64,000 nucleotides of DNA from Nitrosopumilaceae archaeon (GCA_965207375.1 CBDBMG010000003.1:640001-704000); one strand, 5' to 3'; shown: positions 4,626 to 59,533, numbered from the stretch's first letter. Program-made: numbers and translations. The notes: generated by a model from the letters alone, not told the origin.

Positions 4626-4745
4626 ACTTTGTCGGAATGATTCGATTTGTCGATATTCGTTTGATATATACATAAATCTGTAGCTATGGGTGGGGCAATT
4701 AAGACGTCATATTGGGGCGGTTGTATGTGGTCAAATTGATGCAGC

Positions 4746-21789: not shown

Positions 21790-22390
<601 letters not shown>

Positions 22391-29895: not shown

Positions 29896-30004
29896 TTAAA
29901 AATTAAAAAAATATAAAGTGAGTAGGGATAGATCCCTCAGTGCTACAAAGTGAACAAGGAATGAAATTTTGGCTTATAGCATGAGATAATTTATAAAAGT
30001 TTAA
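29896..30004 (+). mobile_element. Family B palindrome-arm fragment
   Basis: AAAGTGAGTAGGGAT...GTGCTACAAA...GCATGAGATAATTTATAAAAGTTTAA matches 25510-25640. Confidence 0.6.
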
Positions 30005-30884: not shown

Positions 30885-31430
30885 CGTGTGTGCGTGTGTG
30901 TGTGTGTGTGTGTCCTCCGGGGCCATGTATAGCTAGTGGTGTGATATGCACCCTGTGTGATTGGTTAAACAAGTTCTACTGCTTTTCAGTTTCTGTATAA
31001 TGGCACTTGCTAACAATGGGCTTGGCCACTAAACGAAGCACATCGTGAGTTACTGCCAAAAGAAGAGCAAGGTAATACTGTATTTGCCGTTCCTTTCACA
31101 ATAAAAGGTACATATTTAACTAGCTGTATTTTCCCAACAAGATGAAGTGCTTCAGCTTTAAAATTGGGCATGCTGTGTGGGTTGTGAAGCTTATAAAAGA
31201 AGACTGGTGTACAGTGTTACAGTAAGAATTTTGGCTTAAGACAAGTTTACACTACTTTTGAAAAGTTTTATCACTAAATACTGGAGTACAAAGCTGGTTT
31301 AAACAAAAGAATTAAATTTGCTATGGGTCCCTTAGTGACGAGTCTTTGCTCATGTGATTTACTCATGACATCATTAAAATACATTGAATAACAGTTGATT
31401 TATAGTGGTTTAACTAGATTGTAAAACATC
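30885..31430 (+). mobile_element. Family A copy
   Basis: (GT)n followed by core homologous to 25200-25490 and reverse of 20850-21350. Confidence 0.7.
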
Positions 31431-34629: not shown

Positions 34630-35591
34630 GTACGGAGTCTAAGTAGTACTTAATAGTAGGGATTGACACAAAAAACATGGTGTCCTACTTTTACGGGCCT
34701 CAATAACACGTGTCACAATATACCTTACCTAAAAAACTGACTGAAATGCATTGGTAACACTATAATAAAACTGTACCTTTGTTAAACGCCACAAAAATCC
34801 TACTGATGTGATCCATAAAGAATTTTTAAAAATTTAGTATTTTGTCTGACCACTGGCCTGCCGAACTACCGTAAGATCCACCAGCACTAGGAGTATGGCT
34901 CCATTTTTCACACAACAATGGTAATTGCATCCGATTTATAAAACTGTTCTTCAGATGAAGATTCATCCACTGCACCATGGTGTTTCTTTTCAAACTTCAG
35001 TATCTTCCTTTTTCTTTATTTGTGCCATTAAAAAAGGCAGAAATTCACAAGAGCAGGTGTCGATGAACTTGCGCCTTTGTTACGCAAAACAGCCTTGGTT
35101 TGCTTTTTGTGGCATACTTGCATAGTATATACATTTGCCTGCATAATCACATAATATAAATTAATCTGTCCTTACTTTTCTAGACACCTAAATCATTAGA
35201 GGCGCCTACCTAACTATATTTTACAGGCGCTTGTTAACAAGAGCGTTAACATGGTAAAGCAGCTGTATTATAGCGAAATACTTTTAAAAAACATCAAAAT
35301 CTATTGTCTAAGTTACGTATATATATTGGCTCATATTATGAAGTTCATGATGTAATAAAATACACATAAAAAACAGTAAAAACAGTATTAATGGCAGGCG
35401 CATTGCTAATTATGTCACATGTGACTAGAATAAATAAAATTTTAAAAAATAAGTATAGGGATCAATCTTTCACTGTGAGCCAAAAGTAGGGGTTAAACTT
35501 TAGTGCTCTCTTATGCCAAAAACTTGTTCCTTGTTTCCTTACTTTTTGTAGCAGTGAAATATTGATCCCTACTCACTTTTTAATTTTTATC
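34630..35591 (-). mobile_element. Family B copy (reverse; palindrome internally deleted)
   Basis: GTAGTACTTAATAGTAGGGATT end at ~34643-34664; caggcgcttgttaacaa block shared with 25920-26070; arm remnants 35423-35591. Confidence 0.65.
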
Positions 35592-37149
35592 AAGACTCAC
35601 GGTAGTGAGTTGCGAGGCCAAGAAGAAGCAGGCCGTACACGACAAATGAGTGAGTTATTTACACGTAGCACTGCTGCGAAATTTGTTTACGCCGCCATTG
35701 AAGCTATTGCTTAGTTATCTAGGACTTAGCATGTTCTAACTATATAGAATCAATAATCAGACAATGGAGGAAATCGGCATAGCCAGTCCTAAGTACCAGC
35801 CATTGCAAGTTTAATGGCACCCGTTTGTGCACCCACACTCAAAAAGCCATCCCCTTGGCACCCATTCACTCATTTACTAAATAAATAGTACCTTCAATGT
35901 ATGAAGAATCGTTGATCTGAAGTCGTTTGATATCCATGAGACGAGTTTTCCGCACGCGCCTTATAAACTCTTCCTTCCATCAAGGCGCTTGTCGGTTTTT
36001 TTCTTCTTCTGATTCTACTTTCAATTTTTATCGCACACTGTTCGTGGGCTTGTGGGAGTTTGTGTGAATCCTGAAAGTTTTTTCAAACTCTCTTTTTGCG
36101 TATTCATTTGTTTGTGCAATAACTCACTTATTTCTTAATGGATTTCAGCCAAAACTTTTATCAGCACTTCTTCCATGTATGCCCTACCTGTCATACCATT
36201 TTCAGCCTGTAAAAAGCACTTGAATTTATTTGTGATGGGCTATTACACTGCAGGTTGACAGTTACCATAACTTGGATCCCCTTCATGTGATTTGCATAAA
36301 ATTTCAGATACACAATCTATATTGATGTATTGAAAGTTTTAAAAAAATCTCGGGCCTGAGTTTTTCAATATTAAGATTTCAAAGTTGCATCTGTTTCATA
36401 TGCTTCTACATAATAGCCATACCGTACTCGTACAAATTTTCGAGGGACGTAAATTTTGCTGTTTTCGTGGATAATGTGTGGTCCACGAAAATTAAATCCT
36501 CGAAAATTTTATGTTTTATAATAGTGCGCACATAATCTATCGATACGAAATCCTGTAATCCTCGAAAATAAAATCGCAAAAATGCTGAATTTGTGGCATC
36601 CGCGAAATATACGTCCCTCGAAAATTTGTATGAGTACGGTATGCTATCAAGAAACATCCTGGATGCAAAAACTAAAGGTTTCTTGTCAGGATTTAACATA
36701 TTCTGTTTCTGAATACTTACAAAAAGCAGTGATATGCTAAACAAAAACAGCCTGGCTGTAAAAAAGTGCGAGGCCAATCAGAAGCCACAATGGTTACAAG
36801 CGATCAAAAACTCTGATATCAAGTAAGGCCAAGAAGTTGAACATTTTATTAAGAATCCTTTTACTTGAATGACATACAATAGCTTACAGGGCATTTCCAC
36901 AACTATGATTGGCTTTGTCACTTGGCCACCTTATAAAAGATGATGGTACAAAAAGGTGGCCAAGTGATAAAACCAATCATAGTTGTGAAAATGCGCTGTA
37001 AACTGTTGTATGTCATTCAAGTAAAAGGATTCTTAAAATGTTCAACTTCTTGGCCTTACTTGATATCAGAGTTTTTGGTCGCTTGTAACCATTGTGGCTA
37101 CTGATTGGCCTCGCACTTTTTTACAGCCAGGCTATTTTTGTTTAGCATA
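35588..37149 (-). mobile_element. Family C copy 1: non-coding element with 417-bp terminal palindrome and TACC-loop hairpin end
   Basis: TATCAAG-ACTCAC-GGTA-GTGAGT-TGCGAGGCC at 35588-35619; body homologous to 58043-58810; palindrome 36733-37149 with spacer 36933-36952. Confidence 0.8.
36420..36641. mobile_element. TA-flanked CCGTA MITE nested in family C
   Basis: TACCGTACTCGTACAAATTTTCGAGGGACGTA ... TACGTCCCTCGAAAATTTGTATGAGTACGGTA. Confidence 0.85.
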
Positions 37150-39645
37150 CTATTAACTCCCCCAACAATAAACCAAAATGTATAAAAGCAACCAAACCAC
37201 ATCAACAAAATGCCAATACCATGTTGCTTCCAAGTTAACTGATAAAAAGATACGTCTATTACAAAAATCATTAACCTAAACAACACCTTTAATTAAACAA
37301 GCTCTACACTTCAATATAAATGGAAATTGTAGCTATAATGTTTGTATTTAAGTTGTTCTACAACATGTTTTCTTGTAAAACTCTTGTAGAGCTACTACAA
37401 GCTAACAAGAACACAATAACCAAAACCTTTGGCATCTGGAAACTTATGAAGTGTTATCTTTTACTGCCTATAGTTATGCTTCTATAACCCTTGCTGTGGT
37501 AAAGACAAAATAACAATAGTACAATACATTGTGCTAGGTTGTTTCAATGGCATTTCAATGTAAAATTAATTACTGGCCCCATTCAAAATGGCGTCGATAA
37601 AGTGGGCGTAGTTTTGGAAAGTGTCTATAGTATCGATATTGTAGCGTTAGTTACCAATTAACCGGATGAAAAAGTAATCTGATTTTTTCGCCTGTTAAAA
37701 TACCTTATAGAACACACAGCATGCTCAATACAACAAGTAGACTACATAGAATAATGCAATGACGTATAATTCCCGCAAAACCAATCAATGATGCAATAAT
37801 CACAACCTCTAATATTTTGCGCGAAATCAATTATCAAAAACTGCATCAATTATCGGTTTCGCCATAGGCGATAATACATCAATTATCAGTCGACTCAGCC
37901 AGCAGTACATCAATTATCGTTTCAGTGCAAATCGATTTTACTGCCAGTAAGCCTACTCAAACAATTGTCCTGTATCTTTCTACATAGAGCAATTGTTCAC
38001 GAACCTGTTTTTGATCCACTTTCAAACAAAGGATAGTGATACGCATGCGTACGCGCACTGATGGTCGTCACACCTTGGTGCCAGAAACCAGCCAAACAAC
38101 CAGCTTTTCAGCCCATTTCTTTTATAACACTTTTTTGAATGTATTAACAAATCCGTTCTTCGATGTAACTTTTTTGTATTGGCAAGTTTTCTTCAGGTGG
38201 GTGAAGGAAACCAACGAAACAACCAACCTTCAAGCTCGTTTCTTTTATAACGCGGTGTTCTATTGATTAACAGACTTACCCATCGGTATAGTTAATCTCT
38301 ATTGGCAAGTATTCTCCTTTCTAGAATATTTCCCGCAAACGAACGTGTTGCCTGTCACATGCCTCTTCTGTAATGATTGAAGCTACGTATGAGGATTTGT
38401 TTGGTTGCATGTGGTTAAGGCCAGTTTTCTGGCCTTTGCATTTTCGGTGCTTTCGTAAAGTGGCCAGTATTCTGGCCTTTGCAGGTTAAGGGGTTAATAC
38501 ACTTCACATGGCACATATAGGCATGATTTCCGAAATTCACCTCAGAACTCTTACAAGCCTCTGGGGGTAACAATTAGCCAAGAAAGATCCAAGTATGCCT
38601 GCTTCAGCCAGTTCCTTGGCCATAAAGGTTGCATTTATCTTACAATGCTTAAGACTGTGGCCCTATTCAAAATGGCAGAACAAATGTTACCATGGCAATT
38701 ACGTACTTTTGGAAAGTATCTATTGATGGGTGGGGCTTTAGTAACAAAGCGGATCATGAGTTACTGCCAAAGAAGAGCAATGTAATGCTGTATTTGCCAT
38801 TCATTTCACAGTAAAAGCCGTTTAAACAGTTGTACATTATTAACAAGACGGAGCAATTCAGTTTTATAAGTGTATATGCTGCGCAGTAGCCTGGTGTAGC
38901 CGACCTTTTTATAAAAAATAAAAGGGTATGGTTACTTTAGCAAAGTGAACTTGTTCAAATGGAATGTTAATTAAGAAGCTTAGATTACACATTTCAAAAA
39001 CAACATAATCAGAAACCAAGGCAACTTACATCCCTTTCACACTATCCCTGATTACTCACAATGGATAATAACCTGGGTTGTAGAACTCAAGTTAGCTCTT
39101 GTTCACATTACTACTCAAAACTACAGGCCAATTCGAGTTCAAGATTGCACGCCAAAGTAAATATTTGTTATTCAGTGCCTATCGGAGTAATGCTGAAGTT
39201 GAAGTGACTAAAAGCAGCGAAGCGAAGAACAAGGCAGAAGGTGCACAATAGTATAGTATAGTTTCGACAAAGTGGAGCACTGCAGTACTGTCCACACCAT
39301 TTGATTTATTATCAAAAAATTGAGTATAATTACAATTTCTGTACTAGCCATTTAAAAATGTCATGATTTTTACTTTTGCCATAACTTTGAGGTTGGCTCA
39401 CTAATAACAAAAAATCTATAATAGTACAATACATCGTTGTACCTTACTTCATTCTTCTTCATCGTCCATTTCGCCATCAACATTAATATCTTCAGGCGCT
39501 ATAAATCAGCATAAAAGCACGAAAAATAACTTTTTATTATTGTCATACCTTCTTTGTCTGTAAAAGCAGACTAGCACACTATGCACGCAGAGGAGGTACG
39601 ACACACACACGTGAGCCAATACATTTAGTACAACATTCATTTCTT

Positions 39646-39853
39646 TACCGTATGGCTGGAAATTTTCGAGGGATAAAAAGTTCGCTGTTTTTGTGGATTT
39701 TGTTATAACCTTGAAAATTTTTATCCTCGAAATTAGTAATTAATAGTGCGTATTAATTGATAATTAGCTAAACCTCGAAAAAATTTTTGCAAAATGTTTT
39801 CCAGAGCTCAACTACGAAAATTTAGTCCCTCGAAAATTTCCAGCCATACGATA
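39646..39853. mobile_element. TA-flanked CCGTA MITE
   Basis: TACCGTATGGCTGGAAATTTTCGAGGGA ... TCCCTCGAAAATTTCCAGCCATACGATA. Confidence 0.85.
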
Positions 39854-40108
39854 CTTCTATTTTGCTCCAAATATCGATTTTTACTATGTTTATATAACAG
39901 TGAGACATTATGCGCTATCAACCCCATTCAAACCCACTACTCCCAGCGAGTAAATTGCACCGATAGACAAAAGGCATCACGTGCTCATTAAGTGCGCCGA
40001 TGTGATGGACATGGGGATTGCACGAGAACTCTGACACCTGAAATCGTGACTAAAAAGCGACCTAGAACCTCACCTACTCTACATACGCCTCAAAGAAATA
40101 CCAAGAGA

Positions 40109-43100
40109 ATGCCCCTACGAGAGAGAGCGCTTAATTCTACCATGCGCGTGGCACTGCGACAGATAAGGTTGCCCTTTGACCAACCATCGCCTGTTGACCA
40201 AGCAACACAGAAGCCTAGAGAGAAGTGGTCTGATGCAGAAATCGAGGCCCTTGTGGAATTCGTTTTGTTTCATTCAGCTGGAGACATGCAGTTGGCCAAC
40301 CCACAAGCAAGATGGTTTTTGGAGGAATTCTTATAGAAGAGAGCCAAAACTAGTATGCGTAGAACTGGTAAGTATATTAGATAAAATATATACTTGGCTT
40401 ATGTGAGGTTGAAATTGTATAGCCAGTGCTTGCCGATTCAAAGTTATTGGTTGGCTGTCTAAGAAGTTTAAATCACCTAAGGAGGCTGAAAAATTCTTTG
40501 CTAAAGTGGAAAGCAACTCCTCAGCAAGTGTAAACACATGCAACAGGAGCACCATGAATGTTTGTAAAAGTGTACAAACAGAAGATGTTAATCCTTCCAC
40601 TGTTTATTACTTATATGATAAGCTTTTAGCAGAGGTAAAATTGAAAGTGTTGTTCTCCACATACATGACATCTGATATGTGTGTGTCTGTCCCTGGTGAT
40701 TTTCTGACTTACACCGCAAAGGCTATGATGAATTTGAAGAGCAGTGGGCGTATTAATGTGCTCTACAATTTGGCTAAGGGAATAGGGTCACTAAGGGCTG
40801 ATGATACTACTTTAAGATTTCCGACTGATCGTATGCTGATGGGTTTAATTGAGTACATTGCTAGCTTCTATGTCTGCGATGATGTGAATCAGGTATTAGA
40901 TTACAATAAAGGTGTTTATATTATATAATATTATTGCCTGCTTACTACAAACAATCATACAATACTATTTGATTACTTAAATTTAGTAGGACCTGAAGTA
41001 GCACCTTGCTTATTGTTCACTACAGCATAGGGCTCTCCATTGCTGTTAAATGTGAATTATAAGTAAACTATTATGTAGAGTACTATTGGTTATATAGATT
41101 ACTTGTCCAGTTGATTATCGTTTGTGGCAACAAACAATGTTTAGCCAATTTGGAATTAAGTGGACAGCATTACATCACGGACCACTGTGGAGTGCAGCAT
41201 CTAATGATGGAGAAGTCAATTCAAACAAACGAGACCCAATGACAGTAAGGATTTTTAAAAAATACTTGTTCTAGACATACAATGTTTTACAGGCTTTAGT
41301 TAATATACTGGCACTTTCTGTAAGGACCTTGGAACGGGATATTGCTTCTAGTGGTGTAACATTGAACTCTCAAATACAAGTATGACTTCTTGTTCTATCT
41401 ACACACACATGAATATCGTAATTTCTAGCTAAGTGTTCTTGATTAAGCTGTGAAGTCACACCCTACTGCATGGTGGTGGCTGAAAGCTGATGGATGTGAC
41501 TTGGTCAAGGGTCTCAAAGAATCTGTGAAATTACAGTGGAGTGGAGATGTAGATTTGAATGATGGCCAACTCCAGAAACAGTATAAGGCATAGGCGTCGG
41601 AACCGGGGGGCCATGGCCCCCACAGATTTTGTAAAATGTATTTTGGCCCCCCCACTTTTTACCAGCTTAACCTAGGATGGCCAGGATGTTTCCAGTCAAG
41701 CAAACACAAGTCTACATACTATTAATGCTATTGTATTCTAATATATTAGAACGAGTAATTTATTTTGAGCTAACAAGTATACAAGATTCGATCCAGTACC
41801 TTTTTATGAACAAAAGTTGTTTCATCATTAAAATATCAAGTAAGTCTTGAAAGGAAAATGAAGACATAAGTTAAATAAAACGGTGTTGTATTCTAATATA
41901 TTCGAGTGATTAATAAATGTTGATCCAGTAATTGAATGAGGTTAGTGAGTAAATAAGTTAGCTTTTTGTTTATAGAGTGTAAGCAAAGCTTATTACTGTC
42001 TATATGTAGAGAATGCCTACAACTCAGTGCTTATCGGCCTCCCACGCAATTAATTATATATTCTGGAAATTAGAAGCTATATAGCTAGCTAGACTAGCTA
42101 GTATATGAGTGTTGTGATTAGTCATTCCTAAGCTAGATCCCATGCATTAATAGCTATTTTAGCTGAGATAGGTAGCTAGTTAGTCTACTATAGCTACTAG
42201 CTACTTGTTTCATATAGCCATAATTTTTAAAAAATTCTATTAGACATACAATAGCTATAGCTAACTGTATAACTAATACCTAGTAACCATTAATCATGCA
42301 GCTAACTAGCTATAATCAATCATGTTATTCAGTTCAAGCTGTGATAATGGCATTGATTCAGTGAAATCATTTCCTATCATTTCTTGCATAAACTGCCACC
42401 AAAATCAATCTCAGAGCATGTAATTTTCCAAATTTTCCTGGGGGGACATGCCCCCAGACCCCCCTAGCTTTAGCATGCTTCGCATGCTGATTGTGCTTCG
42501 CACAACATAGCTGATAGGACTAAAAGCTATTCTAACATCACATTTTGGCTGGCTATGCTGGTTACTGAGAATATATTTGGCCCCCCAGTATAAAACATCT
42601 TCCTATGCCTATGGTATGAGGAATATGTGAGCCTTTTGGAGTCAGTGAAGAAGGCTGGCCTAGTGCCAGAATGTGGCTCCAATGAACTAACACATATTTT
42701 GGAGGATGTTACAAAAGATTTACAATATGTTCAATCAGGTATGCAGGGTTAATGTATTGACAATAATCATACCATGTTATGTTTAGAATTAAAGAATTCA
42801 AATGATACTTATTCCCGTAAGCTTCAGTCTGATCACTACAAGGAGAAGGATCTGATATCCCTTGCTTGGAAAGTCAAGGAGATCAGTCAGCTAGATAACA
42901 TGGGCCGGAAATGTTACAGAGACACCAGCAGTATAGTAGAGAAGATTTAGCGGGATCAGGACTTGTGGCAAGAAGAGAATATCCCAAAGCAGTTGACAAG
43001 CATCCGACAAAGCTTGATTTCATTCATCAAGGGAATTACTCGTCACCAGCGAATAGCTGCAACTCATATTCTGGTCTTCATGATCAGCTGTGAAGAAAGA

Positions 43101-43876
43101 AGATCAAAACCTTATGCTCTTCCTGTTCAGTGTATACCATATAAAGTGATATAAAGATCCGTGAGTTAGCCAACAATGTTATTCAAGAAATGGTGAAAAG
43201 AAATATGAAAGTAGCAGGTACTAATCTCTTGTATACTCAGTTGTTCGAATAATTGTATCTGTAAAAGCTAGGTTTTACTACTGATGTTGAATGAAACATT
43301 CTGCGAACAAAAGGAAATAGTCAGCCGTTGTCTGTATTTCAAATCTGTAGTGAAGCTAGAGCAAAATATTCACGAATGAAATTACAAAAGATGATTGCAA
43401 TGATCACTCCTCTCTGTATGTACTTGGTTGTAATGATAGTTCCGTTATACATATTATTTTTTTAGGTAATGCGGATGGATAAATCACTGCCACAATTCCT
43501 AATGCTGCTGTGGATGTTACTCTGCTTAAGCAAATATATGGTTGGACCAAAGCAGGTGCGACAGAAGATGATGTGATCGACCGTTTACAACTTCAAGCTG
43601 TACCAACTGGCTACACTATTCACACCTGGACAGAAGGTTTGTGTGATCATGTACGTATATACGTAGAAGTGGCCTTTATATTTTTATGATGCAGGAAAAC
43701 AGGAAAGCAAACTAGAGAAGTTGAAATCTATTTTGGCTCAACTTGAATATAAACATCAAGTCATGTTGTGGGTGTCAAAAGGAGTGCCTTTTAATAATCA
43801 TCTTTATGTGCCTGAAGCCCACCCTATAACAGGTTTGGAATTTTGTGAACGTGAGGATGAAGGTGACGTCTTTAAG
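40109..43876 (+). pseudogene. Nine-exon P-element-superfamily (THAP9-like core) transposase pseudogene with N-terminal Myb/SANT-like domain, 3' truncated
   Basis: Exons ~40109-40367, 40423-40892, 41098-41244, 41293-41379, 41429-42738 (minus insertion), 42787-43217, 43272-43416, 43466-43637, 43695-43876 with GT-AG bounds. Motifs WWLKADGCDLVKGL..WSGDVDLNDG (D1), ATHILVFMIS..KPYALPV, MKVAGFTTD (D2), EREDEGDVFK (DxxH-like, H replaced by D). Several stops and frameshifts. Confidence 0.7.
41589..42613. mobile_element. hAT-type non-autonomous element inserted in transposase exon 5
   Basis: CATAGGCGTCGGAA ... TTCCTATGCCTATG; 8-bp TSD gtataagg/gtatgagg; removal restores CAG TAT GAG GAA frame. Confidence 0.85.
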
Positions 43877-43930
43877 GTAAGTTCTACTAAATGACAACAT
43901 AATGTGCTAGATTTTTCTTTAAGTATATGT

Positions 43931-45200
43931 ATATGCTAAACAAAAACAGCCTGGCTGTAAAAAAAGTGCGAGGCCAATCAGAAGCCACAATGGTTATAAG
44001 CGACCAAAAACTGTGATATCAAGTAAGGCCAAGAAGTTGAACATTTATTAAGAATCCTTTTACTTGAATGACATATAATAATTTACAGGGCATTTTCACA
44101 ACTATGATTGGCTTTGTCACTTGGCCACCTTATATATAAAAGATGATAGTACAAAAAGGTGGCCAAGTGACAAAGCCAATCATAGTTGTGAAAATGCCCT
44201 GTAAATTATTGTATGTCATTCAAGTAAAAGGATTCTTAATAAATGTTCAACTTCTTGGCCTTACTTGATATCACAGTTTTTGGTCGCTTATAACCATTGT
44301 GGCTTCTGATTGGCCTCGCACTTTTTTTACAGCCAGGCTGTTTTTGTCTAGCATATCACTGCTTTTTGTAAGCATTCAAAAACAAATTATATAATTTAAA
44401 CAAGTCCTGACAAGAAACCTTTTATAAAATATGCAGAGTAATAAAATTTCAAAGGGGAGAGAAGAAAGTTAATACTTAGGGTGTTTCCCTTGTAGTTCCC
44501 CCAAGTAACTAAAATGAACATATAAAGCATGTGTTATTAATATAATTGTTAGCTATGTAGGTGGAGAACAGTTGAGAACTTCAATGAAGGCTACATCATT
44601 GCCATCCTCTACTGACAGTCTATTGATCAATCTACAGGAGAAAACAATATTATAGTGTTTAAATAAAAATTTTGTATGCTAATAGTGACAGTGATCTCCT
44701 ATTTATAATGTGTGGCCACTGTTCACCTGTTGTTGTTTGGTATAATTATCATGCATGGCACATAAACATGAATGAAATCGTTAAAGGCTAATTTTGACAA
44801 ACTGAAGTGTCATAATTTCTTTAAACTTATACTGAAGATGCATATATCAATATAGCTTGTGTATCTAAAATTTCATTCAAATGATTTAGAGGGGTCTGAG
44901 TTATGGAAACTATCAACATACAGTGTAAAAGTATCTCTCAAATACATTGAGATATTTGCTTTATGCTGAAGTTGTTTGTCTGGTAGAGCATACATAGGAG
45001 AAGTGTTGATACAAATTTGGTTGAAATCCATGCAGAAATGAGTGAGTTACTAGATAAACAAGTGTATGTACTAAATGAGTGTTTCAAATATAAATTCCGG
45101 GATTCACGCCGGGGGTCACGCAAGCCCACGAAAAGTGTGCGATGAAAATGAAAGAAAGAAACAAAGAAGAAAAAAAGAAGTGTTGAAAAGAAGGAACTAT
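43931..45200 (+). mobile_element. Family C copy 2 (opposite orientation, hairpin end missing)
   Basis: Palindrome 43931-44356; body 44357-45200 is reverse complement of 36670-36730 and 58470-59180. Confidence 0.8.
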
Positions 45201-45829
45201 GTAAAAAGAAGACGGAACTATAAAGGAACCTGATGGAACTATGTATACACCTGCTAGTTGTAGTAAATACCATGGTACGTCTATATAAAGATTTTGGTAG
45301 TTTTCTTGTTGGATAAGTTGCAGCTGTTGTGTGTACTCCTTATACCAGTGCCAACTTGCTGTGTTTAAGTGTGATAGGTACTGTAATTGTATGAGCTGGA
45401 TTATTAATTAATAATTGGGCAACGCTAATTAATATTACGTAGTGCTAATGCAAAATATTAGCTAATATTTGCATTAGCATTAGTCCCATTGTTTTGTATA
45501 CTACTGTGTGATATAAATTTTTGATGGGCTGTAATGCCGATCCATTAATTTTATTTGTCAGCCCCAATAAGTCAAAAACACCGTTATACGGTACATGTGG
45601 TATCAATTTTCATTTGTCAAAAGGTAAGTATCGTTATATTAGCTTTCAAAATGGACATGATCTTGTAAATAATCATGAAGCAACTTTATTCATGTTCGTT
45701 AGGAATACAAATAAAGGCATTGTATATCCATCAAGCTGTTTATTTGGTTGATGAAATTCATTAGTTTATAGTGTTTTTGTGTTGGCAATGTAAACTTGAG
45801 GAGAAGACCCACTAATTGTACGGTATTCA

Positions 45830-46100
45830 ATGTATTTAATGATGTCACCAGTAAGTCACATGAGCAAAGACTCATCACTAGGAACACATAGCAACGCATA
45901 CACATTTAATTATTCAGCTTTATACTCCAGTACTTTACTGATAAAACTTTTTAAAGCCGAAATTCTTACTGTAACACTATAGGCCAGTCTTCTTTTATAA
46001 GCTTCGCAACCTGCACAACATGCCCACTTTTAAAACTGAAGTGCTCCGTCTTGTTAGTAATGTACAACTAGTTAAATGCCTTTTACTGTGAAATGAACAG
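45830..46100 (-). mobile_element. Family A fragment
   Basis: gtcaccagtaagtcacatgagc...ggccagtcttcttttataagc matches 20930-21200. Confidence 0.7.
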
Positions 46101-46241
46101 CATTTACAGCTAGAAAAATTATAAGCACTAAATAGTTGCAGAGCTGTAAACTGATAACCATATTACACAACTACAGCATCAGTCATAAAATACTGTACAT
46201 ATAAGTATATCATTTTGATGTCGATACATCGATACCATGAT

Positions 46242-47004
46242 CAAGGGCGGCGGAATCGGTCCGGCTGGTCCGGTTTTAGCCGGACCACTTTTCCATGAAG
46301 ATTCTAATATTTTCGGGTAGACCAAAAACACACCTGATACGATTGTGTAAGATTGTTGCTACTTCACGGATAGGATACGTATAATTATTTAGCTACACTA
46401 TAAAAGGATACTCTAGTTCATTTAGTCCATGAATCAATCACGCTTACAGTAGTTCTCAGTGCACGCGCATATCACGTGACACGTGTCGGTGACGTCCAGT
46501 GTAAATTTTCGCAGATGGATGCCGATTGTGCTAGTTCTTCCAATACTAATTATACCTTCAATCGATTTTATCCACCACAGAGTTGCTGCTTTCCAAAGCG
46601 ATGCATGGATCTAAGGATATGGTTTTTGAAGTGATGGCTGACGCCAATCTAAGTGATGGCTGGCTCCAATGTAGCTAATGTTTTAGAGCCTTTGAACTGT
46701 TTGTATACCTGTAACTGTTATTACTTATGGCTATAGCTATAATTGTTTTATTGGACATGAAGTGATACTGAGTCACTTTGATAGGAAATTAACACACATG
46801 CATACGTAGCTATATGCTAAATACTTATGGAGAAGTAAGTTCTGGCTGAGAAAGCTCTCAGATGCAATCTCAGAGCATGTTTTTTTCAAAAATTTCCTGG
46901 GGGGGAAGCCCCCAGACCCCCCTAGCATTAGCATGCTTCGCACACTTCTCTTTAACAGCCATACCCTTGGCCGGACCTATCAAAAGTTGCTTCCGCCGCC
47001 CTTG
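46242..47004. mobile_element. Non-autonomous TIR element (hAT-like CAAGGGCGGCGGAA ends)
   Basis: CAAGGGCGGCGGAA ... TTCCGCCGCCCTTG; shares ctcagagcatg...cccccagacccccctagc block with 42410-42480. Confidence 0.7.
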
Positions 47005-49041
47005 ATGATATATGATATATCGATATGACCTAAGTATGTATTGATACAGTATTGCTGCCCAATGATTCACGATATGGCGATATCGATATATCGATATATT
47101 GTTGCATCTCTAACATACATTATACACATTAGAGATGGGACAATACTATATATTACAGTATGTAATGCAATACGTTTGGAGTGATGCATCGATAATTCTG
47201 CACCCTGTAGTGTCCCATCTCTAATACACATACATGCATGCATACATACTTAGTTTACATAAATACTTGCACGCATGCACGGACATGTACACACACACGC
47301 ACACACACGCACACACATACATGATACATTCATGTATTACATACTGTGTATGAGAAGTCTTGAGGGTGTTAAAAGTTGTATCACAAATGCAGAAATAATT
47401 TAAAATGGTCGATGATATTGCCAATAATTGTTAATACAGTGCCAGTGCCAATATTGCTATACCGATAATATCTGAATATCGGATTACCTATATACAGTAT
47501 TGGTATTTGTACCAATATTGGTAATACCAACATGTCAGTGATGGTTTTGTTGACCAAGTGCTTACGATAAGGTTAAAAATTGTCCGGACATTTGTTTGCC
47601 TATTGTAAATTTATTGACTTCCCCATTGATAAATTATTATAAATTTGTTTAGTTTGGTCAGTCAGATATGCCATAGTTGGCTGGAGACGATTGGCCATTA
47701 TTGTAAGCTCTGCAACCAATGCTATATAATTGTGTTAAAGTAGCATTGTAAATGTTGGATATTATCAGTCTAACATATTTAGTGACTGAATATTTGGACT
47801 GTGATGAACTTCTATAGGCTATATATAAAGTGTATAAATACTAGTGTGAGAAATAACAGCGTAGTCAGGGCATTTTTAAAATTGTATGGTAAAAATGTCC
47901 AGAAGCAAACTGTTGAGAAATGCATGGTTTTACTATATTGCCTGACAGATCTGTACATTTCCATGCAAACTTTATCATATTATGACAGTGAATCACCTTA
48001 TGCTTCAAATGTTATTTCACACACTGAAATACAGTAACATATGTAGTATAGTTTAAACATATACAAACTCAAATATGCTATGACTTGTCCCCACATATGG
48101 ATTTTTCCATGATACGTAGAAGTTGACGGTATTCAAGTATCATAATGATATAATCAATGTCGATCTTGGAAATATGTGTTACAATATCACAACATTACTG
48201 CGTATGTTGCTAACACTACAATATAGTTAAGTAACAGAACCGCAAAGTACTAACCAAAGCCATTCAATCAAATAGAATAAGATATTAGTATCTGTTGTAT
48301 GTGCACGTGGAAAAATATTATTAGAGGCACTTTTCAATGACAAATATTTTTGAGTGAGATTCGCCAAAGTTTGACAATGCCATAGTTTACCATTCATGTA
48401 TATGTGTGTATGTACTTACCAGGGCCGTAGCCGCCAAAAAATAATCAGTCCGGCCATCCTGTAGGGGAACCGGGAGTGCTCTAAAGTTCCCAGTGAGGTA
48501 GCTACAGGGCTATTTCGTTTCCAGAGGCTGGAAGTATGTTGGCAGCGAGATTCACTGGATTTTCACCCCACACAGCTTTTTCTAAAAAACAAGAGCACGA
48601 AAATATTAGAATACAGTCCCGTTTTTATTTTCTGTCTCCTTACAAACTATTTCTGGCATTTTAGCATCCTGTTTTAATGTTTATCACCAGTTTAATAAGG
48701 AAAAACTGATTAAATGGCTATCCAACCAAGACTTAAAATGTATTCTAGGCGCGCACTATTAATCTCGAAGATGCTAATTATTGTAACTACTCGTACATAC
48801 GTATATAAGTAGCTACGTAGCTATATGTATTTGATTTCGAGTGATCACTTTGTCCAGGAATATATTAGCTAGCTAATTAATGTAACTATATATAATCAGT
48901 CATGGATTGTATAGCTAATCATTAAATTAGTAATTTGCATTTGTCACTGCTATAATTAGCTAATTTAATTAAGGGTGCATGTTCAAATTGTCTGCAGGTC
49001 ATTGTAATTAATTATACAGCTGCATGCATGCATGCATATAT

Positions 49042-49404
49042 CAGGGGCGGATCCAGGGGGTTCTTTGGGGTCTCGAGACCCCTTCCAGAAATATATCAGG
49101 GAAGCCAAAAGAATGATGTATTGGTATAAAAACACACTAAAATGTATTATTTCTTGAATTAAGCGAATTTTCAGTACTTGATGAGATAAAACAACCTATA
49201 TCTTCCAAGGGGTTGCACCCACCACGCCCCCTACTCCATATTTGGCTTAAAACTTCTTTGTATTTACTTAAATATGCTCTAAATCTTGGATTAGGCATGA
49301 TTTTGGTGTAAAACACCCTATAGCTTCAGGGGGGCTGCGCCCCCTGCTTCAGAGATTACCTCTATATTCAGACCCCCTCTCGGAAAATCTTGGATCCGCC
49401 CCTG
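49042..49404. mobile_element. MITE with CAGGGGCGGATCCA termini (hAT-like)
   Basis: CAGGGGCGGATCCA ... TGGATCCGCCCCTG. Confidence 0.75.
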
Positions 49405-49785
49405 TGTATACATTATATAGCTATCAGTTGTGTCAAACAATTTTAGTATCCCTATAGGCCTTCATCTAGCTATATCTTCCACTGAAAAATTAAAGCTACA
49501 TGGCTATACGCATGATGCATTTGGCTGAAATTTGGAAAATATATACTCAGATGAGACAAGCTTACCTAAGTATTTATGTAGCCTTGTAAAAACGTAGCTA
49601 GTGGTTGTGTTGCAGTTTGGCACATGCTGCAGTCAGGGGCTATATTATCAATAGTTATATAGCTATAGGTAGCAAGTTTTAGCTACGTAGCATACCACTC
49701 AGCTGGTTGCATGCCCCATTGACGTGATGTGCACTTGACATATACGTTGAGCTAGCTAGTTGTATAACTGTGAACCTTATATTAT

Positions 49786-50011
49786 CGCGAGTATATCATA
49801 GAGTACACGTGACGTTTGTACTAAAAGGAATAAGATGTCGCGAGTGTATCATAGAGCACACGTGACGTTTCCAATAAAAGGAATGAAATGTCGCGAGTGT
49901 ATCATAGAGCACACGTGACGTTTCCAAAAAAAGGAATGAAATGTCGCGTGTATCATAGAGCACACGTGACGTTTCCAATAAAAGGAATGAGATGTCGCGA
50001 GTGTATCATAG
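49786..50011. repeat. 53-bp tandem minisatellite x ~4.3
   Basis: Unit TGTCGCGAGTGTATCATAGAGCACACGTGACGTTTCCAATAAAAGGAATGAAA; consecutive units start at 49836 and 49889. Confidence 0.95.
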
Positions 50012-50468
50012 GCCGGCTATTATAAAAGCGAGACCTAGAAAGAACGTAACTGAACACTGATCCGGCCGGCAACTATAGCTAGCCTAAAGTTGTGCCATTA
50101 CAGCTAGCCGGTTATATGCTATGATAGCTAGGTGCAGTAACTTGATTACATATACCCACTTTAGTCTCACATGGCCAGACCCTTTCGGCGCGCGCGAAAA
50201 TGGTCTGTCCGCACGAGACCCCCAACTTGTATAAGGTCTATTACGCAGTGCTTATATATTGCATACAATAAACGCCCTGCGCGAAAAACGGAATCACGCA
50301 TACCATTGCATAATTGTTGTGTCCATGAGGTGGACCATAGATAACTATGGATGTATATGAAGTTATGCTCAGATCGCTCATTAAATCGCTTCGTGTAGCG
50401 GCGAGTTATGCTGGAAACAACATTATCATCTCCAATATCATGACCACTATTAACAGCAACAAATTTGA

Positions 50469-52585
<2,117 letters not shown>

Positions 52586-54139
52586 GTGTGCATTAATTTG
52601 TTTGTGTGTTTATACACAATTACATTACTGTGTAATACTGTTATACCGTGAAACAGAATATTTTCACTAGTGCTTCAAAGTGGATTCACCCTTAAGATAC
52701 AAGTTGAAATCCACACACGTTCCGTTATCTGTATGTGCGTATGTATGTAGTAATGTATTATTTTAACAAGCATTAGGAAAATCAGGCCTCAAAATATTTT
52801 TATATGTCTTGTAGAAAGGCTCCCAAGAATCTAGGATATCTGGATATTAAGAGTAAGATATACGTACTCCATCAAATACAGGGTAGGGTATTGCTTCTCT
52901 TGTAACCAAATTCAGCTCTAAATGGTTACTTTGTATTGTTATTCTCAAATTTAGCTCTGCTATGATAAAAGGATGTTTTATGTTGTAATATTCAAATCCA
53001 CAATTAAATGTTTTGTGTGAGGGTATAAAAGGGCATGGTAAATGTTAACAAAAGTGCTTTAACAAGTTTATATGTATGGGCATGAGGGCAAGCCACCAAA
53101 ATGCCCACCATCCAAATAACAGCGATGTACCAATATGAGATTTAGCTGATATTCTATACCAATGACCGATCCGATATTTTAAACATGTTTGCTTCCTTGA
53201 TGTAGCTATGTAGTATGGTCATACAAATACATACATTGTGCATTTTTACAAATAGGAGAGGTAATCATATGCATGTACGTACATGGTGCATTTCATATTA
53301 TGCTATCCTATCTAACATGCATAGTGTATATTATTATTCCACAAAGTACAGCATTTGCAGTGTGTTGAGTGATATTGGCATTTCATACATGGTACGGTAT
53401 TGTTGTTGTAATATGTGACCAAGTCTGCGAAAACAGGTTTTATCTACACATTCAATCACACACAATCTCTGAACCATAAATTCCCTTGTGAATAAGCTAA
53501 CAATGCACATTTCCATTTCGTACACTGCCATGCTTCATTTTTTGCCACATGCAGCTATATAGCAGGAAAACTCTGTGTATTAAAAAATTTCCGGCTTAAA
53601 ATAATTTTGTACACTTGCTAAGTTTACGAAATTAAAGCTCATTGAACATTTAGCTCTTGCTACTTTACTACCACCAAAGCATTCCTGATCTACGATATAG
53701 CTGATAGTGCTTTAAGTGTTTTATTGTATTTTACACCTATTAATGTGCGAATAAAACACAGTTCTTTGATAGTACTGAATAAAGGAATTGCACAAGTATA
53801 TGGTTTTCTTTGATAAAAGTGTCAACAAGCTACCGTTCTACAACTACTCTAGCATTCTATAACTACCCAACCACAGTTCTATAACTGCCTCCTTGACACA
53901 TTAAGGTAGTTATAGAACTGTTGAACCCTTTGATCCGTCCATGCAAAATACAATAAATATGTCATAACAGCAAATTAAAATTTTCTGTGTAACATTTTTG
54001 TGTTTTAAGTAGGGAAACTACATGAATGATGAATTGGTAGCAGTATCAGAATCAGTGATTTTCATAGCCAATATATCGGTTATCGGAATATCGGTTATTT
54101 TGCATATCGGTGCAACTCTTATTATATATCATGATACGT

Positions 54140-54970
54140 AGTTCGCCCACAAACACACACAGAGGGTAAACATGGTGAACCAACGAAACAGTAAACCTGG
54201 CATGTACTGGTCTGTAGGCTCATTGTTAAAAATATTTTTATAGAAACTGATGCATAAGTTTTTGTTTTAGTGTAATGTGGGCCCCGGGCCTTGGAAAAAT
54301 TCAATAATGGAAGATAAAAGCAGTGGAGACATTTATTAAAATTTACCTGGCTCTTTTATACCCTCACTCATAACATTTAATTGTGGGTTTGAATATTACA
54401 AACACAAAACATTATTTTATCATAGCTGAGGTGAATTAGAGCAATAACAATAACAAATGGACCATTTAGAAGCTTACACTTGTACACATACATTTCAGGA
54501 AATCTCATAAAATATTTGATTGTGGGGTTAATTTAAATGTAATATCATTGTTCATTGTTATACCATCAATGAATTATGTAGTGTTAACTTAGGAACATAT
54601 TAGTGGTGTGCATTATACAGAATATGAATATATATCGTGATAAATGATGATATGAATATGAAATTTCTTCTATCGTGATGTAATGATACGTAACACAAAA
54701 TGGCGGCTAACATACAAAATATGACATGTTTGACTAACTAATAGTTTTCATGTTGTAATATTCAAACCCACAATGAAATGTTATATGTAAGGGTTTAAAG
54801 CCAGGTAATAAATGAATGTCTGCACTGTCTTTATTCCTATTGAATTTTGCATTACACTAAAGTAAAATAATGCATCAGTTTCCATCAAAACAATTTTAAC
54901 AATGAGCCTTCAAACCAGTACATGCCAGGTTTACTGTTTTGTTAATTCTTTATTTACTCTGTGTTGTGCG
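54140..54970. mobile_element. Long-TIR fold-back repeat; related copies at ~52900-53170 and ~57050-57770
   Basis: 54160-54410 is a diverged inverse of 54745-54965 (aaacagtaaacctggcatgtactgg / ccagtacatgccaggtttactgttt). Confidence 0.6.
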
Positions 54971-54978
54971 GGCATGCA

Positions 54979-56153
54979 TAGTATCGCGAAACCTGACTGC
55001 TCACTTCCGTTTTTATTTGTAGTGGTGGAAAAAGGTCTAGTTACTACACCATAGATTTTTTGTGCTGTAAACAGACTTAGGGAGCGTTGATTGCTGATGA
55101 CAAGTCAAAAAAACTTGTTTAATAAGCGGCACGATAAACCATGTATTAATAAGCGGCACGATAAACCATGTATTGGTTTGACCTAGCCTCCTATACGTAC
55201 ATCACAAGTGCTGCTGGTTTAACACTTCCTTTTCAGCAATCAATGCTGCACAAAATTTGTGGAACCCAGAGCACCAAAAGTTGGTAAGATATACGTAGGG
55301 CTGTGCAATAATATAAATTCTATGCAGCTCATCATCACAATTATCACGATATTTCCATGTATGCATGAAATTCACAAAAACATTACTGATAATTATTTAT
55401 TCTGTTAAACATTGTACTATCAGGTACGTACGTACGTACTTACATACTCATTATATATTATCAGGATATTAGAGAATTATGGAAAAACTCTTTTAGCACA
55501 CTTTCTTTACCAGTAGCAACATATTTCCAATAAATTATTACACAAAATATTATCTATCACTACATATACATATTTAAAAATATTACAATTTTATTTTTCA
55601 TCACGATTATATATTGAGCAGCACTAGTAACCTAAAGGTAACCAGACCCTTTTCCACCACTACAAATAAAAACGGAAAAGTAGTAGTGATGCACCGATAA
55701 TCGGATCGGCTATCGGAAATACCCTATAGCGGCTGATTTTTTCATATCGGTAATCGGATCGGTATGTTTGTCAGATTACTAGCAGATCCGATATAATTGC
55801 TGGGCAGTCACAAGTCTATTGTTAATTAAATTTTTGGGTGGGCAAGTGGTGGTCAGGAAGCCATACCTTATACAAACACTGAGGTTTACACTTAAACTGT
55901 AGCAGCCTACTTTTTGTAAGAAGTGTCAATATGTATTTATAACCAAACATGATGAAAGCTTTAACTTGTGGGATACTTTCAATCTTCTTTCAGTTGAACT
56001 TTTATGGTGCAATAGTGACTTTAAAATGAATTGATTATATCGGATTGGTTGTGTTTTTTCGGTTTTACAAATTTATTCATATTGGCTATCGGAATATCGG
56101 TAAAAAGTCATATCGGTGCAACTCTAAAAAGTAGTCTGCGGTATGTTAGATTA
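54979..56153. mobile_element. TAG-terminus TIR element with two nested hAT MITEs
   Basis: ttccgtttttatttgtagtggtggaaaaaggtctagttac (55006-55043) inverse of 55639-55677; nested TAGGGCTGTGC/GCAGCACTA element 55296-55627. Confidence 0.6.
55684..56126. mobile_element. hAT MITE
   Basis: TAGTGATGCACCGAT ... ATCGGTGCAACTCTA; perfect 8-bp TSD AAAAGTAG. Confidence 0.88.
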
Positions 56154-56154
56154 A

Positions 56155-56388
<234 letters not shown>

Positions 56389-56552
56389 ATATGTACGTAG
56401 TTATTATGGAATATCCCAACATAATTATAGTTAATGTATCAATTAAATTCATATTATCATGCCTTATAGCAGTTTTTCAAGGGTAAGATTTTTAACGAAT
56501 CACCCAAATGAGCGCTTAGAAATACCGAAGTTAAATTACACATAAAATTGCT

Positions 56553-56651
56553 TATAGCTTTGGAATCTTGATTTTAGTTGGTATCTGTGCCTTCTCATTG
56601 GCCAAAAACTTCTCATAAGGGCCCCTTGCAGTCTTCATGATGTTTTTCACC
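56553..56651 (-). other. Possible terminal exon (VKNIMKTARGPYEKFLANEKAQIPTKIKIPKL*)
   Basis: cgtAG acceptor followed by a 32-codon protein-like frame ending TAA; no homology recognised. Confidence 0.3.
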
Positions 56652-58042
56652 TACGTAACCATATTGTTAACAGCTGCAATTCGTAATGAAATTTATAGAT
56701 TATTTGCTTGTATTTGGCAAAACAGTATCATCTTGGATGCTTTTAAGATACTTAATTCCATGTTGGTAAATATTTCAAGGGAAAATTTTTCACAAATGAC
56801 AATCGATTCATGAAATTCATGAAGATTTTCCACCTCGAAAAACCTGCTATCTTTATGGTAATTTTATCGTTGAAGATTTTTCAGTTATTGTCCATCACCA
56901 GTAAGACTGATCTATAATATATTGTTATATGTACATACGTATACGACGTATAAAGGAGGTGGGAACAAATTAACTGCTTCGTACTTTTTAGTCTTAAAAG
57001 TTAACATAGTAAAGTATAGACTGCAGACCCAGTTTGATGTTTAGTTGTTGTTAACATTTACCTGGCTATTTTATATAACTACATAATTATTTTTAGTAAT
57101 TGTGGGTTTGAATATACCTACAGCTGAAGATGATCACGAAATGAAATTATTATCAGTATAATGTTGTTTTAGTCTTCTGTAATATTTTTAGAAGTTTTAT
57201 GATTATTCACTACATAACTAATTCATTGATGATATCACAATGAACAATGATATGATAGTACATTTAAATTAAACCCACAATAAAATATTTTATGTGAGAT
57301 ATACTGTACAGGTGTAATGTACTTCAGCTCTAGATGGTCCATTTGTTATTGTTATTGCTGTAATTCACCACAGCTATGATAAAATGATGATTTATATTAT
57401 AATGTTTAAACCCACAATTAAATGTTATGAGTGAAGGTATAAAAGAGCCATTTAAATGTTAACAAATACCCCTTTCAGCATAAACAATTATCATTAAATT
57501 ATTGCAAGGCCTGTTTGGGGCCCACATTACACCAAAACAAACACTTGTGCATCAGTTTCCATCAGAATATTTTGGACAAGGAGCCTTCAGACCAGTATAA
57601 TAAGTACATGCCAGGTTTACTGTTTTGTTAGTTCACTTTGTTTACCCTGTTGAGCACAGGCACGACCACACTCACCAACACATGCACCAGCACAAGCCAC
57701 CAATGTCCACCAGCCAGCTCAGCTCCAAATAACAGCGATGTACGTACCAATATGAGATTTAGCTGATAGTTTGATACTGTATAGGGAAAAACTTTGGCGG
57801 TAAAAGAGGTTTGATAAAATAGTGTTTTTGAAACATAAGCAAAAAGTTTGTCAAATCCGAGGCTTGCCTGTATTTTTAGTGCATATACAGCTCTGAACTC
57901 TGTAAACTACAAAATTTTATAATTATTATATTAGGCGTACACTCCATCGAGCACTGAAGATAACTGTTGATCAGCACAAGACCTTTATTGAATGTGAAAT
58001 GAGAATCCTCAGCTGTATTTCATTATCCAAGATCTACTACCA

Positions 58043-59533
58043 TATCAAGACTCACGATAGTGAGTCGCGAGGCCAAGAAGAAGCAGCCGTACGCGACGAA
58101 CAAGTGAGTTATTTACAGGTAGCACCGCTCAAAAATTCGCAGACGCTGTAACTAAGCCGCCATAAAAGCTACCGCTTAGTTATTATGGACCTAGTACGTT
58201 CTTACTATATAGAATCAATATACCAACAATGAAGTAAATAGCTGCCTCCATTCCTGAGTATCAACCATTGCGAGTTTTATGGCGCTCGTTTTGTGACAAC
58301 GCACGACGAGCCATCTGCCCCGCCCCTTTTCGCTTGTTAATTAGAGAATTAGTACCTTCATTTAATGTAGAATCAGTAACCCAAAGTTCATCGAAATCGG
58401 ACCAGCCAGTCTTCTGATACAGCCTTATAAAGTCCTCCTTCCAGTAAAAAAATTTTTACGCGGCCGTCGTTTTCTTTTTCTTTCTTTCTTTCTTTTATTT
58501 TCATCGCACACTTCGTGGGCTTGCGTGACCCCCGGCGTGAATCCCGGAATTTATATTTAAAACACTCATTTAGTACATACACTTGTTTGTCTAATAACTC
58601 ACTCATTTCTGCATGGATTTCAACCAAATTTGTATCAACACTTCTCCTATGTATGCTCTACCAGACAAACAACTTTCAGCATTAAGCAAATACCTCAATG
58701 TATTTGAGAGATACTTTTACACTGTATGTTGATAGTTTCCATAACTCGGACCCCCTCTAAATCATTTGAATGAAATTTCAGATACACAAGCTATATTGAT
58801 ATATGAATCTTCAGGATAAGTTTAAAGAAATTATGACACTTCAGTTTATCAAAATTAGCCTTTAACGATTTCATTCATGTTAATGTGCCATGATAATTAT
58901 ACCAAACAACAAGAGGTGAACAGTTGCCACACATTATAAATAGGAGACCACTGTCACTATCAGCATAAAACAATATTTCGCACTATAATATTAATTGTCT
59001 TCTCCTGTAGATCAATCAACAGTAGAGGATGGCAATGATGTAGCCTTCATTGAAGTTCTCAACTGTTCTCCACCTACATAGCTAACAATTATATTATAAT
59101 AACACATACTTTATGATGTTCATTAGTTATTTGGGGGAATACAAGGGAAATACCCAAAATATGAACTTCCTCCTCTCCCCTTTATATAAGCGACCAAAAA
59201 CTCTGATATCAAGTAAGGCCAAGAAATTGAACATTTTATTAAGAATCTTTTTACTTGAATGACATACAATAGTTTACAGGGCATTTTCACAACTATGATT
59301 GGCTTTGTCATTTGGCCACCTTTTTGCACTATCATCTTTTATAAGGTGGCCAAGTGACAAAGCCAATCATAGTTGTGAAAATGCCCTGTAAGCTATTGTA
59401 TGTCATTCAAGTAAAAAGATTCTTAATAAAATGTTCAATTTCTTGGCCTTACTTGATATCAGAGTTTTGGTCCTTATATTTGTGGCTTTGATTGGCCTCG
59501 CACTTTTTTTACAGCCTGGCTGTTTTTGTTTAG
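58043..59533 (-). mobile_element. Family C copy 3, inserted into a TA-MITE (from 57775) without evident TSD
   Basis: TATCAAGACTCAC-GATA-GTGAGTCGCGAGGCC end; palindrome 59184-59533 (inner arm shortened); flanks ctactaccat | ...gggcacctacaataaa are contiguous in the paralog at 52085-52135. Confidence 0.82.

Follow-up and report, generated by a model that had tools for sequence, protein, structure and literature searches.

A non-autonomous DNA element whose terminal palindrome carries its centre in both orientations between arms that evolve in concert

Parvovirus inverted terminal repeats and poxvirus telomeres are terminal hairpins that occur as flip and flop isomers: an asymmetric centre is found both ways around, and the two arms of the hairpin are templated by each other. 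Both ends of these replicons are hairpins, they encode or recruit an enzyme for nicking or resolution, and the isomers are about equally frequent in one population of molecules. We analysed a window of 64,000 nucleotides (nt), i.e., the whole stretch CBDBMG010000003.1:640001-704000 (GCA_965207375.1, deposited under the name Nitrosopumilaceae archaeon), which contains a non-coding element, family C, with a terminal palindrome whose asymmetric centre is likewise present in both orientations relative to the body of the element. Unlike the viral replicons, family C is palindromic at its 3' end only, no such enzyme was found among the 27 open reading frames of the window that were scanned, and the two orientations are split 1:2 among three integrated copies belonging to two lineages. 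All counts, copy lists and absences reported here hold for this window.

Foldback elements and miniature inverted-repeat transposable elements (MITEs) with long terminal inverted repeats share with family C the long near-perfect inverted repeats, the short centre and the high hairpin potential; their inverted repeats, however, are the two ends of the element, whereas in family C a single end comprises both arms, and the opposite end consists of a distinct sequence of 44 nt that has only a motif of 10-11 nt in common with it. A different kind of precedent is template switching between the arms of inverted repeats, which leads to both homogenisation of the arms and inversion of the spacer, is reversible and recurrent, and affects preferentially longer arms, according to the sections of PMC8604942 drawn on here; loop inversions that leave the stem untouched are reported for reconstructed ribosomal RNA (rRNA) histories in the corresponding part of PMC8794818. 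The cases described in those parts of the two sources resemble family C in that one arm is templated by the other, the spacer is an exact reverse complement, the borders are intact, and the change is reversible and independent of transposition. They differ from it in scale and setting: their arms are ~10-16 base pairs (bp) and their spacers or loops 2-8 nt long, and they were described from genes and rRNA (PMC8604942, PMC8794818), whereas the arms of family C comprise ~200 nt, its spacer 20-24 nt, and the palindrome forms the end of a mobile element.

Copies were located by self-BLAST of the window and by a repeat search. The palindrome is present exactly three times, each time joined to the same type of non-coding body, and self-BLAST gave no family C copy in the window beyond these three. 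The unit is non-coding, ~1.5 kilobases (kb) long and has its palindrome at the 3' end in each copy: a conserved 5' end of 44 nt is followed by a fast-evolving non-coding body of ~1.1 kb and by the conserved, near-perfect palindrome of ~420 bp, in which two arms of ~200 nt flank an asymmetric centre (the spacer) of 20 nt. Folded as single strands, the palindromes of copies 2 and 1 reach -244 kcal/mol (z -44) and -216 kcal/mol (z -39), respectively, each as one long hairpin, whereas shuffled palindromes fold at about -44 kcal/mol. Family C is a non-autonomous DNA element of a broad class with a foldback end, to which we assign no superfamily.

Copy 1 (35588-37149, plus strand; 1562 bp including a nested MITE) is the flip copy and is homologous to copy 3 from position 35588 to the outer tip of the palindrome. 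Its palindrome (36733-37149, recovered by the repeat search and by self-BLAST) consists of an inner, body-proximal arm (36733-36932), the spacer ATAAAAGATGATGGTACAAA in body-to-end sense (36933-36952) and an outer arm (36953-37149), which bears most of the single-arm changes of this copy. Copy 2 (43931-45176, minus strand) is reversed, in the flop state and truncated at its 5' end, homology stopping at 45176; its palindrome (43931-44356) has arms of 201 nt (99% identity) and comprises the outer arm (43931-44131), a spacer (44132-44155) that reads TTTGTACTATCATCTTTTAT plus ATAT from body to end and is 4 bases (ATAT) longer than the others, and the inner arm (44156-44356), followed by the shared junction with the body (44349-44367, minus strand). 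Copy 3 (58043-59533, plus strand, 1491 bp), again flop, has a palindrome at 59185-59533 with an inner arm of only 138 nt (59185-59322), the spacer TTTGCACTATCATCTTTTAT in body-to-end sense (59323-59342) and an outer arm (59343-59533) with a 5-nt gap and small changes near 59465-59480. The short inner arm is due to a deletion of ~157 bp across the body/arm junction, which removed 62 nt of the arm and ~95 nt of the adjoining body. The 5-nt gap of the outer arm coincides with the point at which the inner arm is truncated; we considered it as a conversion footprint and dropped this idea, the region being too decayed. The initial annotation, which had described three copies of an element of ~1.5 kb ending in a palindrome, was right in these respects but omitted the truncations, the nested MITE and the divergence of copy 1 (74.5-77% identity). 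The nested MITE (36413-36647, strand not assigned) does not belong to family C: it is ~235 bp long, with terminal inverted repeats of ~47 bp (TACCGTACTCGTACAAATTTTCGAGGGACG...; self-matches 36413-36459 and 36602-36647, 91%), and a diverged relative lies 3 kb downstream at 39646-39750. All three copies carry a (TTTC)/(GAAA)-like low-complexity tract in mid-body (35996-36020, 45140-45176 and 58470-58500), and the 5' truncation of copy 2 falls inside this tract, homology stopping exactly there.

Searched with up to 3 mismatches, the 20-mer ATAAAAGATGATGGTACAAA has three matches in the window, at 36933 (plus), 44136 (plus) and 59323 (minus), and no others; shuffled windows gave 0.03 matches on average, and none of 100 shuffles reached three. 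The direction of the element in copies 1 and 2 is fixed by the 19-mer AAAAAGCAGTGATATGCTA at the junction of body and palindrome, which occurs on the plus strand at 36721 and on the minus strand at 44349, and in copies 2 and 3 by their bodies, the reversed body of copy 2 (44451-45176) being 95.0% identical to that of copy 3 (58470-59183); both anchors had already been used in the initial annotation and bear out its orientation of the copies. Read from body to end, the spacer of copy 1 is ATAAAAG...ACAAA and those of copies 2 and 3 are its reverse complement; once reverse-complemented, the spacers are identical at 18-19 of 20 positions, and all three copies have identical borders between arm and spacer (CCACCTT / spacer / AAGGTGG). 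The opposite orientations of the spacer are therefore real, in one copy against two, and the earlier statement that the terminal palindrome exists as flip and flop isomers is confirmed. Copies 2 and 3 are about 95-96% identical throughout, whereas the body of copy 1 shares only 74.5-77% with theirs; to judge from these identities, copies 2 and 3 are sisters and copy 1 represents a diverged subfamily. Because the two sisters share one orientation, a minimum of one inversion is required in the whole history of the three copies.

An assembly artefact would offer a trivial explanation of the two orientations, because near-identical arms leave the orientation of the centre unfixed if no read reaches from the unique flank into the spacer. 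In copies 2 and 3, the arms (99.0% and 98.5% identity) are similar enough that a loop in a short-read assembly graph could presumably be walked either way. In copy 1, however, sites that distinguish the arms are at most about 42 nt apart all the way from the spacer to the flank, and with an inner arm of 138 nt in copy 3 and two distinguishing sites in copy 2, reads of ~150 nt or longer could phase all three copies. Moreover, the window contains no N and includes a low-complexity array of ~1 kb (79-1142), which suggests a long-read assembly. We regard an artefact as extremely unlikely and as the least probable of the explanations considered here.

Together with the last bases of the arm, the spacer reads TATAAAAG (TATATATAAAAG in copy 2) at 36928-36945, 44127-44148 and, on the minus strand, 59330-59347. 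We take this word to resemble a TATA box, and words that we assume to be CCAAT-like (ATTGG / CCAAT) lie ~20-30 nt from the spacer in both arms, with another (GGCCAATCAG) near each arm tip. A flip of the centre would turn the direction of the TATA-like word relative to the body.

The second line of evidence comes from the arms. All six were aligned in the same sense, and differences were counted over the 126 columns in which all six are present. In four cases a copy-private substitution is found on both arms of the copy concerned, twice in copy 2 (columns 93 and 162) and twice in copy 3 (columns 116 and 138). A single arm differs in nine columns, seven of which concern copy 1, and the pattern is different again in two. 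Further out along the arms, copy 1 and copy 2 show two additional fixed differences, each present on both arms (columns 39 and 77). Since the same change on both arms is not attainable by independent mutation, one arm has repeatedly been copied from the other: the two arms evolve in concert. Within copies, arm-to-arm identity is 95.4% in copy 1 (9 mismatches and a 3-nt indel), 99.0% in copy 2 and 98.5% in copy 3. About 8 of the single-arm changes of copy 1 lie in the outer and 2 in the inner arm; we do not interpret this unequal decay, as a binomial estimate was not significant (two-sided about 0.1). In column 163, ~49 nt from the spacer, C is carried by the inner arm in copy 1 and by the outer arm in copy 3, i.e., on the same side of the spacer.

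As to the mechanism of the inversion, we infer, with moderate confidence, that the two spacer orientations are the outcome of an exchange of strands between the arms. Most likely this would have been a template switch during replication or repair, and an intra-palindrome crossover or conversion would be an alternative form; either way, strand exchange would copy one arm from the other and could invert whatever lies between the switch points. It might take place in situ or during repair synthesis linked to transposition. We prefer strand exchange because template switching, as documented in the sources cited above, yields both signatures seen here, and the full signature is present in family C: homogenised arms, a reverse-complemented spacer (18-19 of 20 positions), and conserved arm borders. 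If so, family C would be a clean natural case, on a large scale (arms of 200 nt and a centre of 20 nt), of a strand-switching process in inverted repeats that keeps arms alike and turns centres around, and the orientation of the spacer within a palindrome would be an unstable marker of the orientation of an element.

Several observations weigh against this explanation. The inversions described in the parts of PMC8604942 and PMC8794818 referred to above involve arms of ~10-16 bp and spacers of 2-8 nt, not arms of 200 nt. The arms of copy 1 have drifted apart, although steady homogenisation in situ should have kept them alike. Decay of arms that were still identical at insertion would give this picture and would connect homogenisation with mobilisation, which models based on a hairpin predict as well. 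The asymmetry in column 163 travels with the spacer, so the inverted tract may be much longer than the spacer itself; this is compatible with strand exchange and with a hairpin model alike, and column 163 is a single transition, the only informative site, and could be homoplasy. Finally, between subfamilies the palindrome evolves no less than 10 times more slowly than the body: differences fixed on both arms amount to ~1%, those of the body to ~20-25%. Unbiased copying from arm to arm does not explain this; the entire arm of 200 nt would have to be under selection, or the subfamilies would have to have exchanged ends recently.

The initial annotation had proposed instead that the element moves through a hairpin-ended intermediate. 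In such a hairpin-transfer (rolling-hairpin) scheme, a hairpin-ended or single-stranded intermediate would fold at the 3' palindrome, prime synthesis and be resolved by a nick at the inner junction, so that each cycle would invert the whole palindrome and copy one arm from the other. The positive observations are all expected under this scheme: the palindrome is at the very end of the unit in all three copies, both spacer orientations exist, arm homogenisation is seen along lineages, conservation is strong at the termini, the arm asymmetry ~49 nt from the spacer moves with the spacer, and the single-strand hairpin is very stable (-244 and -216 kcal/mol). The arms also seem to have been identical at insertion and to have decayed later, the copy with the less similar arms (copy 1, 95.4%) carrying a nested insertion and the younger-looking copies retaining 99.0% and 98.5%. 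Every one of these observations, however, is also predicted by strand switching between the arms, and concerted arm evolution in particular, being expected from both hairpin transfer and template switching or recombination, does not discriminate between them. Moreover, the data require one inversion only, and three copies belonging to two lineages are too few to give a frequency, a 50:50 mixture of orientations uncoupled from phylogeny being what hairpin transfer predicts; the scan of 27 open reading frames (ORFs) of the window revealed neither a Rep or helicase nor another nuclease; the 5' end has a 6-bp stem only and no second terminal palindrome; and the arm sequence is conserved, whereas it would be free to drift if structure alone mattered. 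A literature search, with subscription journals outside its scope, gave no cellular transposon with flip/flop ends, which indicates absence only weakly, and the prior is accordingly low. The flip and flop states on which the earlier proposal was built are thus real, but three copies do not separate its hairpin-ended intermediate from ordinary processes. The data are compatible with hairpin transfer but do not need it, and we consider it quite unlikely.

A bolder reading, likewise quite unlikely, would pair family C as a non-autonomous element with an undiscovered transposon mobilised via a fold-back intermediate. In that case the 3' palindrome would snap into a hairpin of 200 bp and prime second-strand synthesis, followed by a nick at the conserved inner junction (AAAAAGCAGTGA/TA), and each jump would rebuild both arms from one template and flip the centre. 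This would account for perfect arms at insertion, for substitutions shared by both arms, for both orientations and for the exceptionally high conservation of the entire 420-bp end. With such a fold-back element, parvovirus-like terminal resolution would be found for the first time in a cellular transposon of a eukaryote, and hairpin transfer, if true, would amount to a new transposition mechanism in animals and to a possible link between single-stranded DNA viruses and cellular transposons.

To return to the conservation of the ends, which strand exchange between the arms leaves in need of a further cause, copies 1 and 3 are 95.5% identical over the first 44 nt and 74.5% over the following ~700 nt, copies 1 and 2 are 91.4% identical over the ~58 nt that adjoin the junction, and the arms of any two copies share 93.6-96.5%. 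The contrast is thus between a 420-bp terminal palindrome conserved to ~95% and bodies that are ~75% identical between the subfamilies. Gene conversion between copies might have produced this contrast together with the inversion: symmetric arms can pair in either register, and a conversion tract that crosses the centre in the 'wrong' register would impose the chromosomal spacer orientation of the donor. The three copies lie within 24 kb, and copies 1 and 2, which are 7 kb apart and have opposite bodies, carry the spacer in the same orientation on the plus strand; conversion between them would explain why their palindromes are 94.9-96.5% identical despite bodies of 77%. Yet no substitution is common to copies 1 and 2 to the exclusion of copy 3, the differences being either private or separating copy 1 from copies 2 and 3 (columns 39 and 77), and conservation is just as strong in the 5' terminal 44 nt, which do not belong to the palindrome. 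We therefore regard inter-copy conversion as unlikely.

The same contrast between palindrome and body could be read to mean that the palindrome is an independent foldback element or long-TIR (terminal inverted repeat) MITE that inserted into family C bodies in either orientation. TA is found on both sides of the palindrome in copies 1 and 2, the palindrome is far less diverged than the body between subfamilies, and another MITE did nest in copy 1. The TA, however, belongs to the palindrome and hence gives no evidence of a target duplication. The junction is identical in copies 1 and 2 and the adjoining body is homologous (91.4% over ~58 nt), so the palindrome was already present in their common ancestor; the window contains no solo palindrome, all three being joined to a body, and in none of the three does body sequence continue past the outer tip, where homology between copies ends exactly. 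An independent insertion is thus very improbable, and the palindrome is presumably an integral, cis-acting end of the element rather than a nested insertion. The termini look functional, and the conservation of the whole 420-bp end suggests that it is needed for mobility.

Both ends also share a short motif. The 10-mer GCGAGGCCAA occurs seven times in the window, always inside family C elements: one occurrence lies 24 nt inside each intact 5' end, and one close to every arm tip that is still present. The conserved 5' end of copy 1 (35588-35631, plus strand; 95.5% identical to 58043-58086) holds this motif at 35612 and a 6-bp stem (ACTCAC GGTA GTGAGT), which is the only counterpart found there to the long 3' palindrome. 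Its occurrences at the 5' end and in the outer arm make up a subterminal inverted repeat, for which equal scores were obtained in 9 of 2000 shuffles (copy 1) and 23 of 2000 (copy 3); an exact match of 11 nt extends to 16 of 19 positions, and the distance of the repeat (TGCGAGGCCAA) is 24 nt to the 5' end and 35 nt to the 3' end. At the 3' end, a T run comes after the repeat, then a short stem-loop (ACAGCC(A/T)GGCTGT, after TTGGCCTCGC and ~15-17 nt from the end) and T-rich sequence.

This arrangement recalls the non-autonomous rolling-circle elements of the Helentron/HINE type (HLE2), which, in the portions of PMC4067079 and PMC11417382 used for comparison, are likewise non-coding with asymmetric ends, a stem-loop after the right repeat in T-rich sequence, a (TTTC)-like tract in mid-element, and termini that are conserved between diverged families. 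Their short terminal or subterminal inverted repeats, to which that of family C may correspond, are given there as 12-16 nt long (PMC4067079, PMC11417382). The 3' palindromes of the HINEs described in the same portions, however, measure 5-10 bp against arms of 200 nt in family C, and these elements insert between T and T, which is not seen at the flanks of family C (PMC4067079, PMC11417382); their subterminal inverted repeats lie 2-4 nt from the 5' end, according to the part of PMC4067079 used, whereas the family C repeat lies at 24 nt. Because of the lack of T/T insertion, the position of the left repeat and the palindrome of 200-nt arms, we do not file family C as a Helentron. A canonical Helitron (HLE1; 5' TC, 3' CTRR, a hairpin of 16-20 nt ~11 bp from the 3' end, insertion between A and T) was also rejected: the 3' end of family C is GTTTAGCA(TA) or GTTTAG, not CTRR. 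A 5' TC following TA is obtained only if the family C boundary is set at that point.

With the boundary at the slash, the 5' flanks read ...TTTT/TATCAAG and ...ACCA/TATCAAG, and the 3' flanks GCATA/CTATT, GCATAT/ACATA and GTTTAG/TTAAC. Reading these flanks gave no target-site duplication beyond TA, which is uninformative because the palindrome itself includes it. On its 5' side, copy 1 is flanked by another short repeat (35434-35588) with internal inverted repeats, which has relatives at 25518-25610, 25672-25811 and 29906-29976; no empty site for copy 1 could be derived, as these relatives stop at the same point. Because they end where copy 1 begins and TATCA is common to both, family C can be delimited on its 5' side only to within about 5 nt.

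For the coding content, 27 ORFs, picked from 51 of at least 90 aa and 111 of at least 45 aa (leaving out the low-complexity ORFs of 79-1142 and most short ORFs), were scanned against Pfam, and no Rep, helicase, transposase or nickase partner of family C was found among these 27. The only matches were RVT_1, DUF7041, gag-asp_proteas, NTPase domains of NB-ARC type (NB-ARC, nSTAND_NTPase5, NACHT, CbiA) and a weak MCM_bind. The window codes for a non-LTR (long terminal repeat) reverse transcriptase (3453-4706, minus strand), an LTR-type reverse transcriptase (6542-8585) and an NB-ARC gene (18032-18952), and it looks like transposon-rich animal DNA. For the ORF at 40413-40928, in which no Pfam domain was found, identity is 43-44% with an uncharacterized protein of the sponge Dysidea avara and with one unnamed record. 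An exact 28-nt arm motif had no match in bacterial and archaeal genome contigs, as expected for a eukaryotic repeat, and Rfam gave no match over 35000-60000. A run of exon-like ORFs extends over 39992-43894 (plus strand), the last of which ends in GTAAGT at ~43878, 51 bp before copy 2, which is hence probably intronic.

Several other repeats are present in the window. A dispersed family (45836-46108, 20922-21226, 21873-22100, 31078-31390 and 38787-38886; 76-84% identity) has one member, 45836-46108, just past the truncated end of copy 2, and another family is represented between copies 2 and 3 by three partial copies (52948-53052, 54718-54969 and 57362-57655) that are 60-86% identical. Four tandem units of 51-53 bp (CGAGTGTATCATAGAGCACACGTGACGTTTCC...), 90-97% alike, occupy 49788-50011. 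The low-complexity repeat of ~1 kb at 79-1142 contains six overlapping ORFs of repeated short peptide motifs, and long (CA)n/(TG)n tracts are found at 51613-51783 and 56155-56400.

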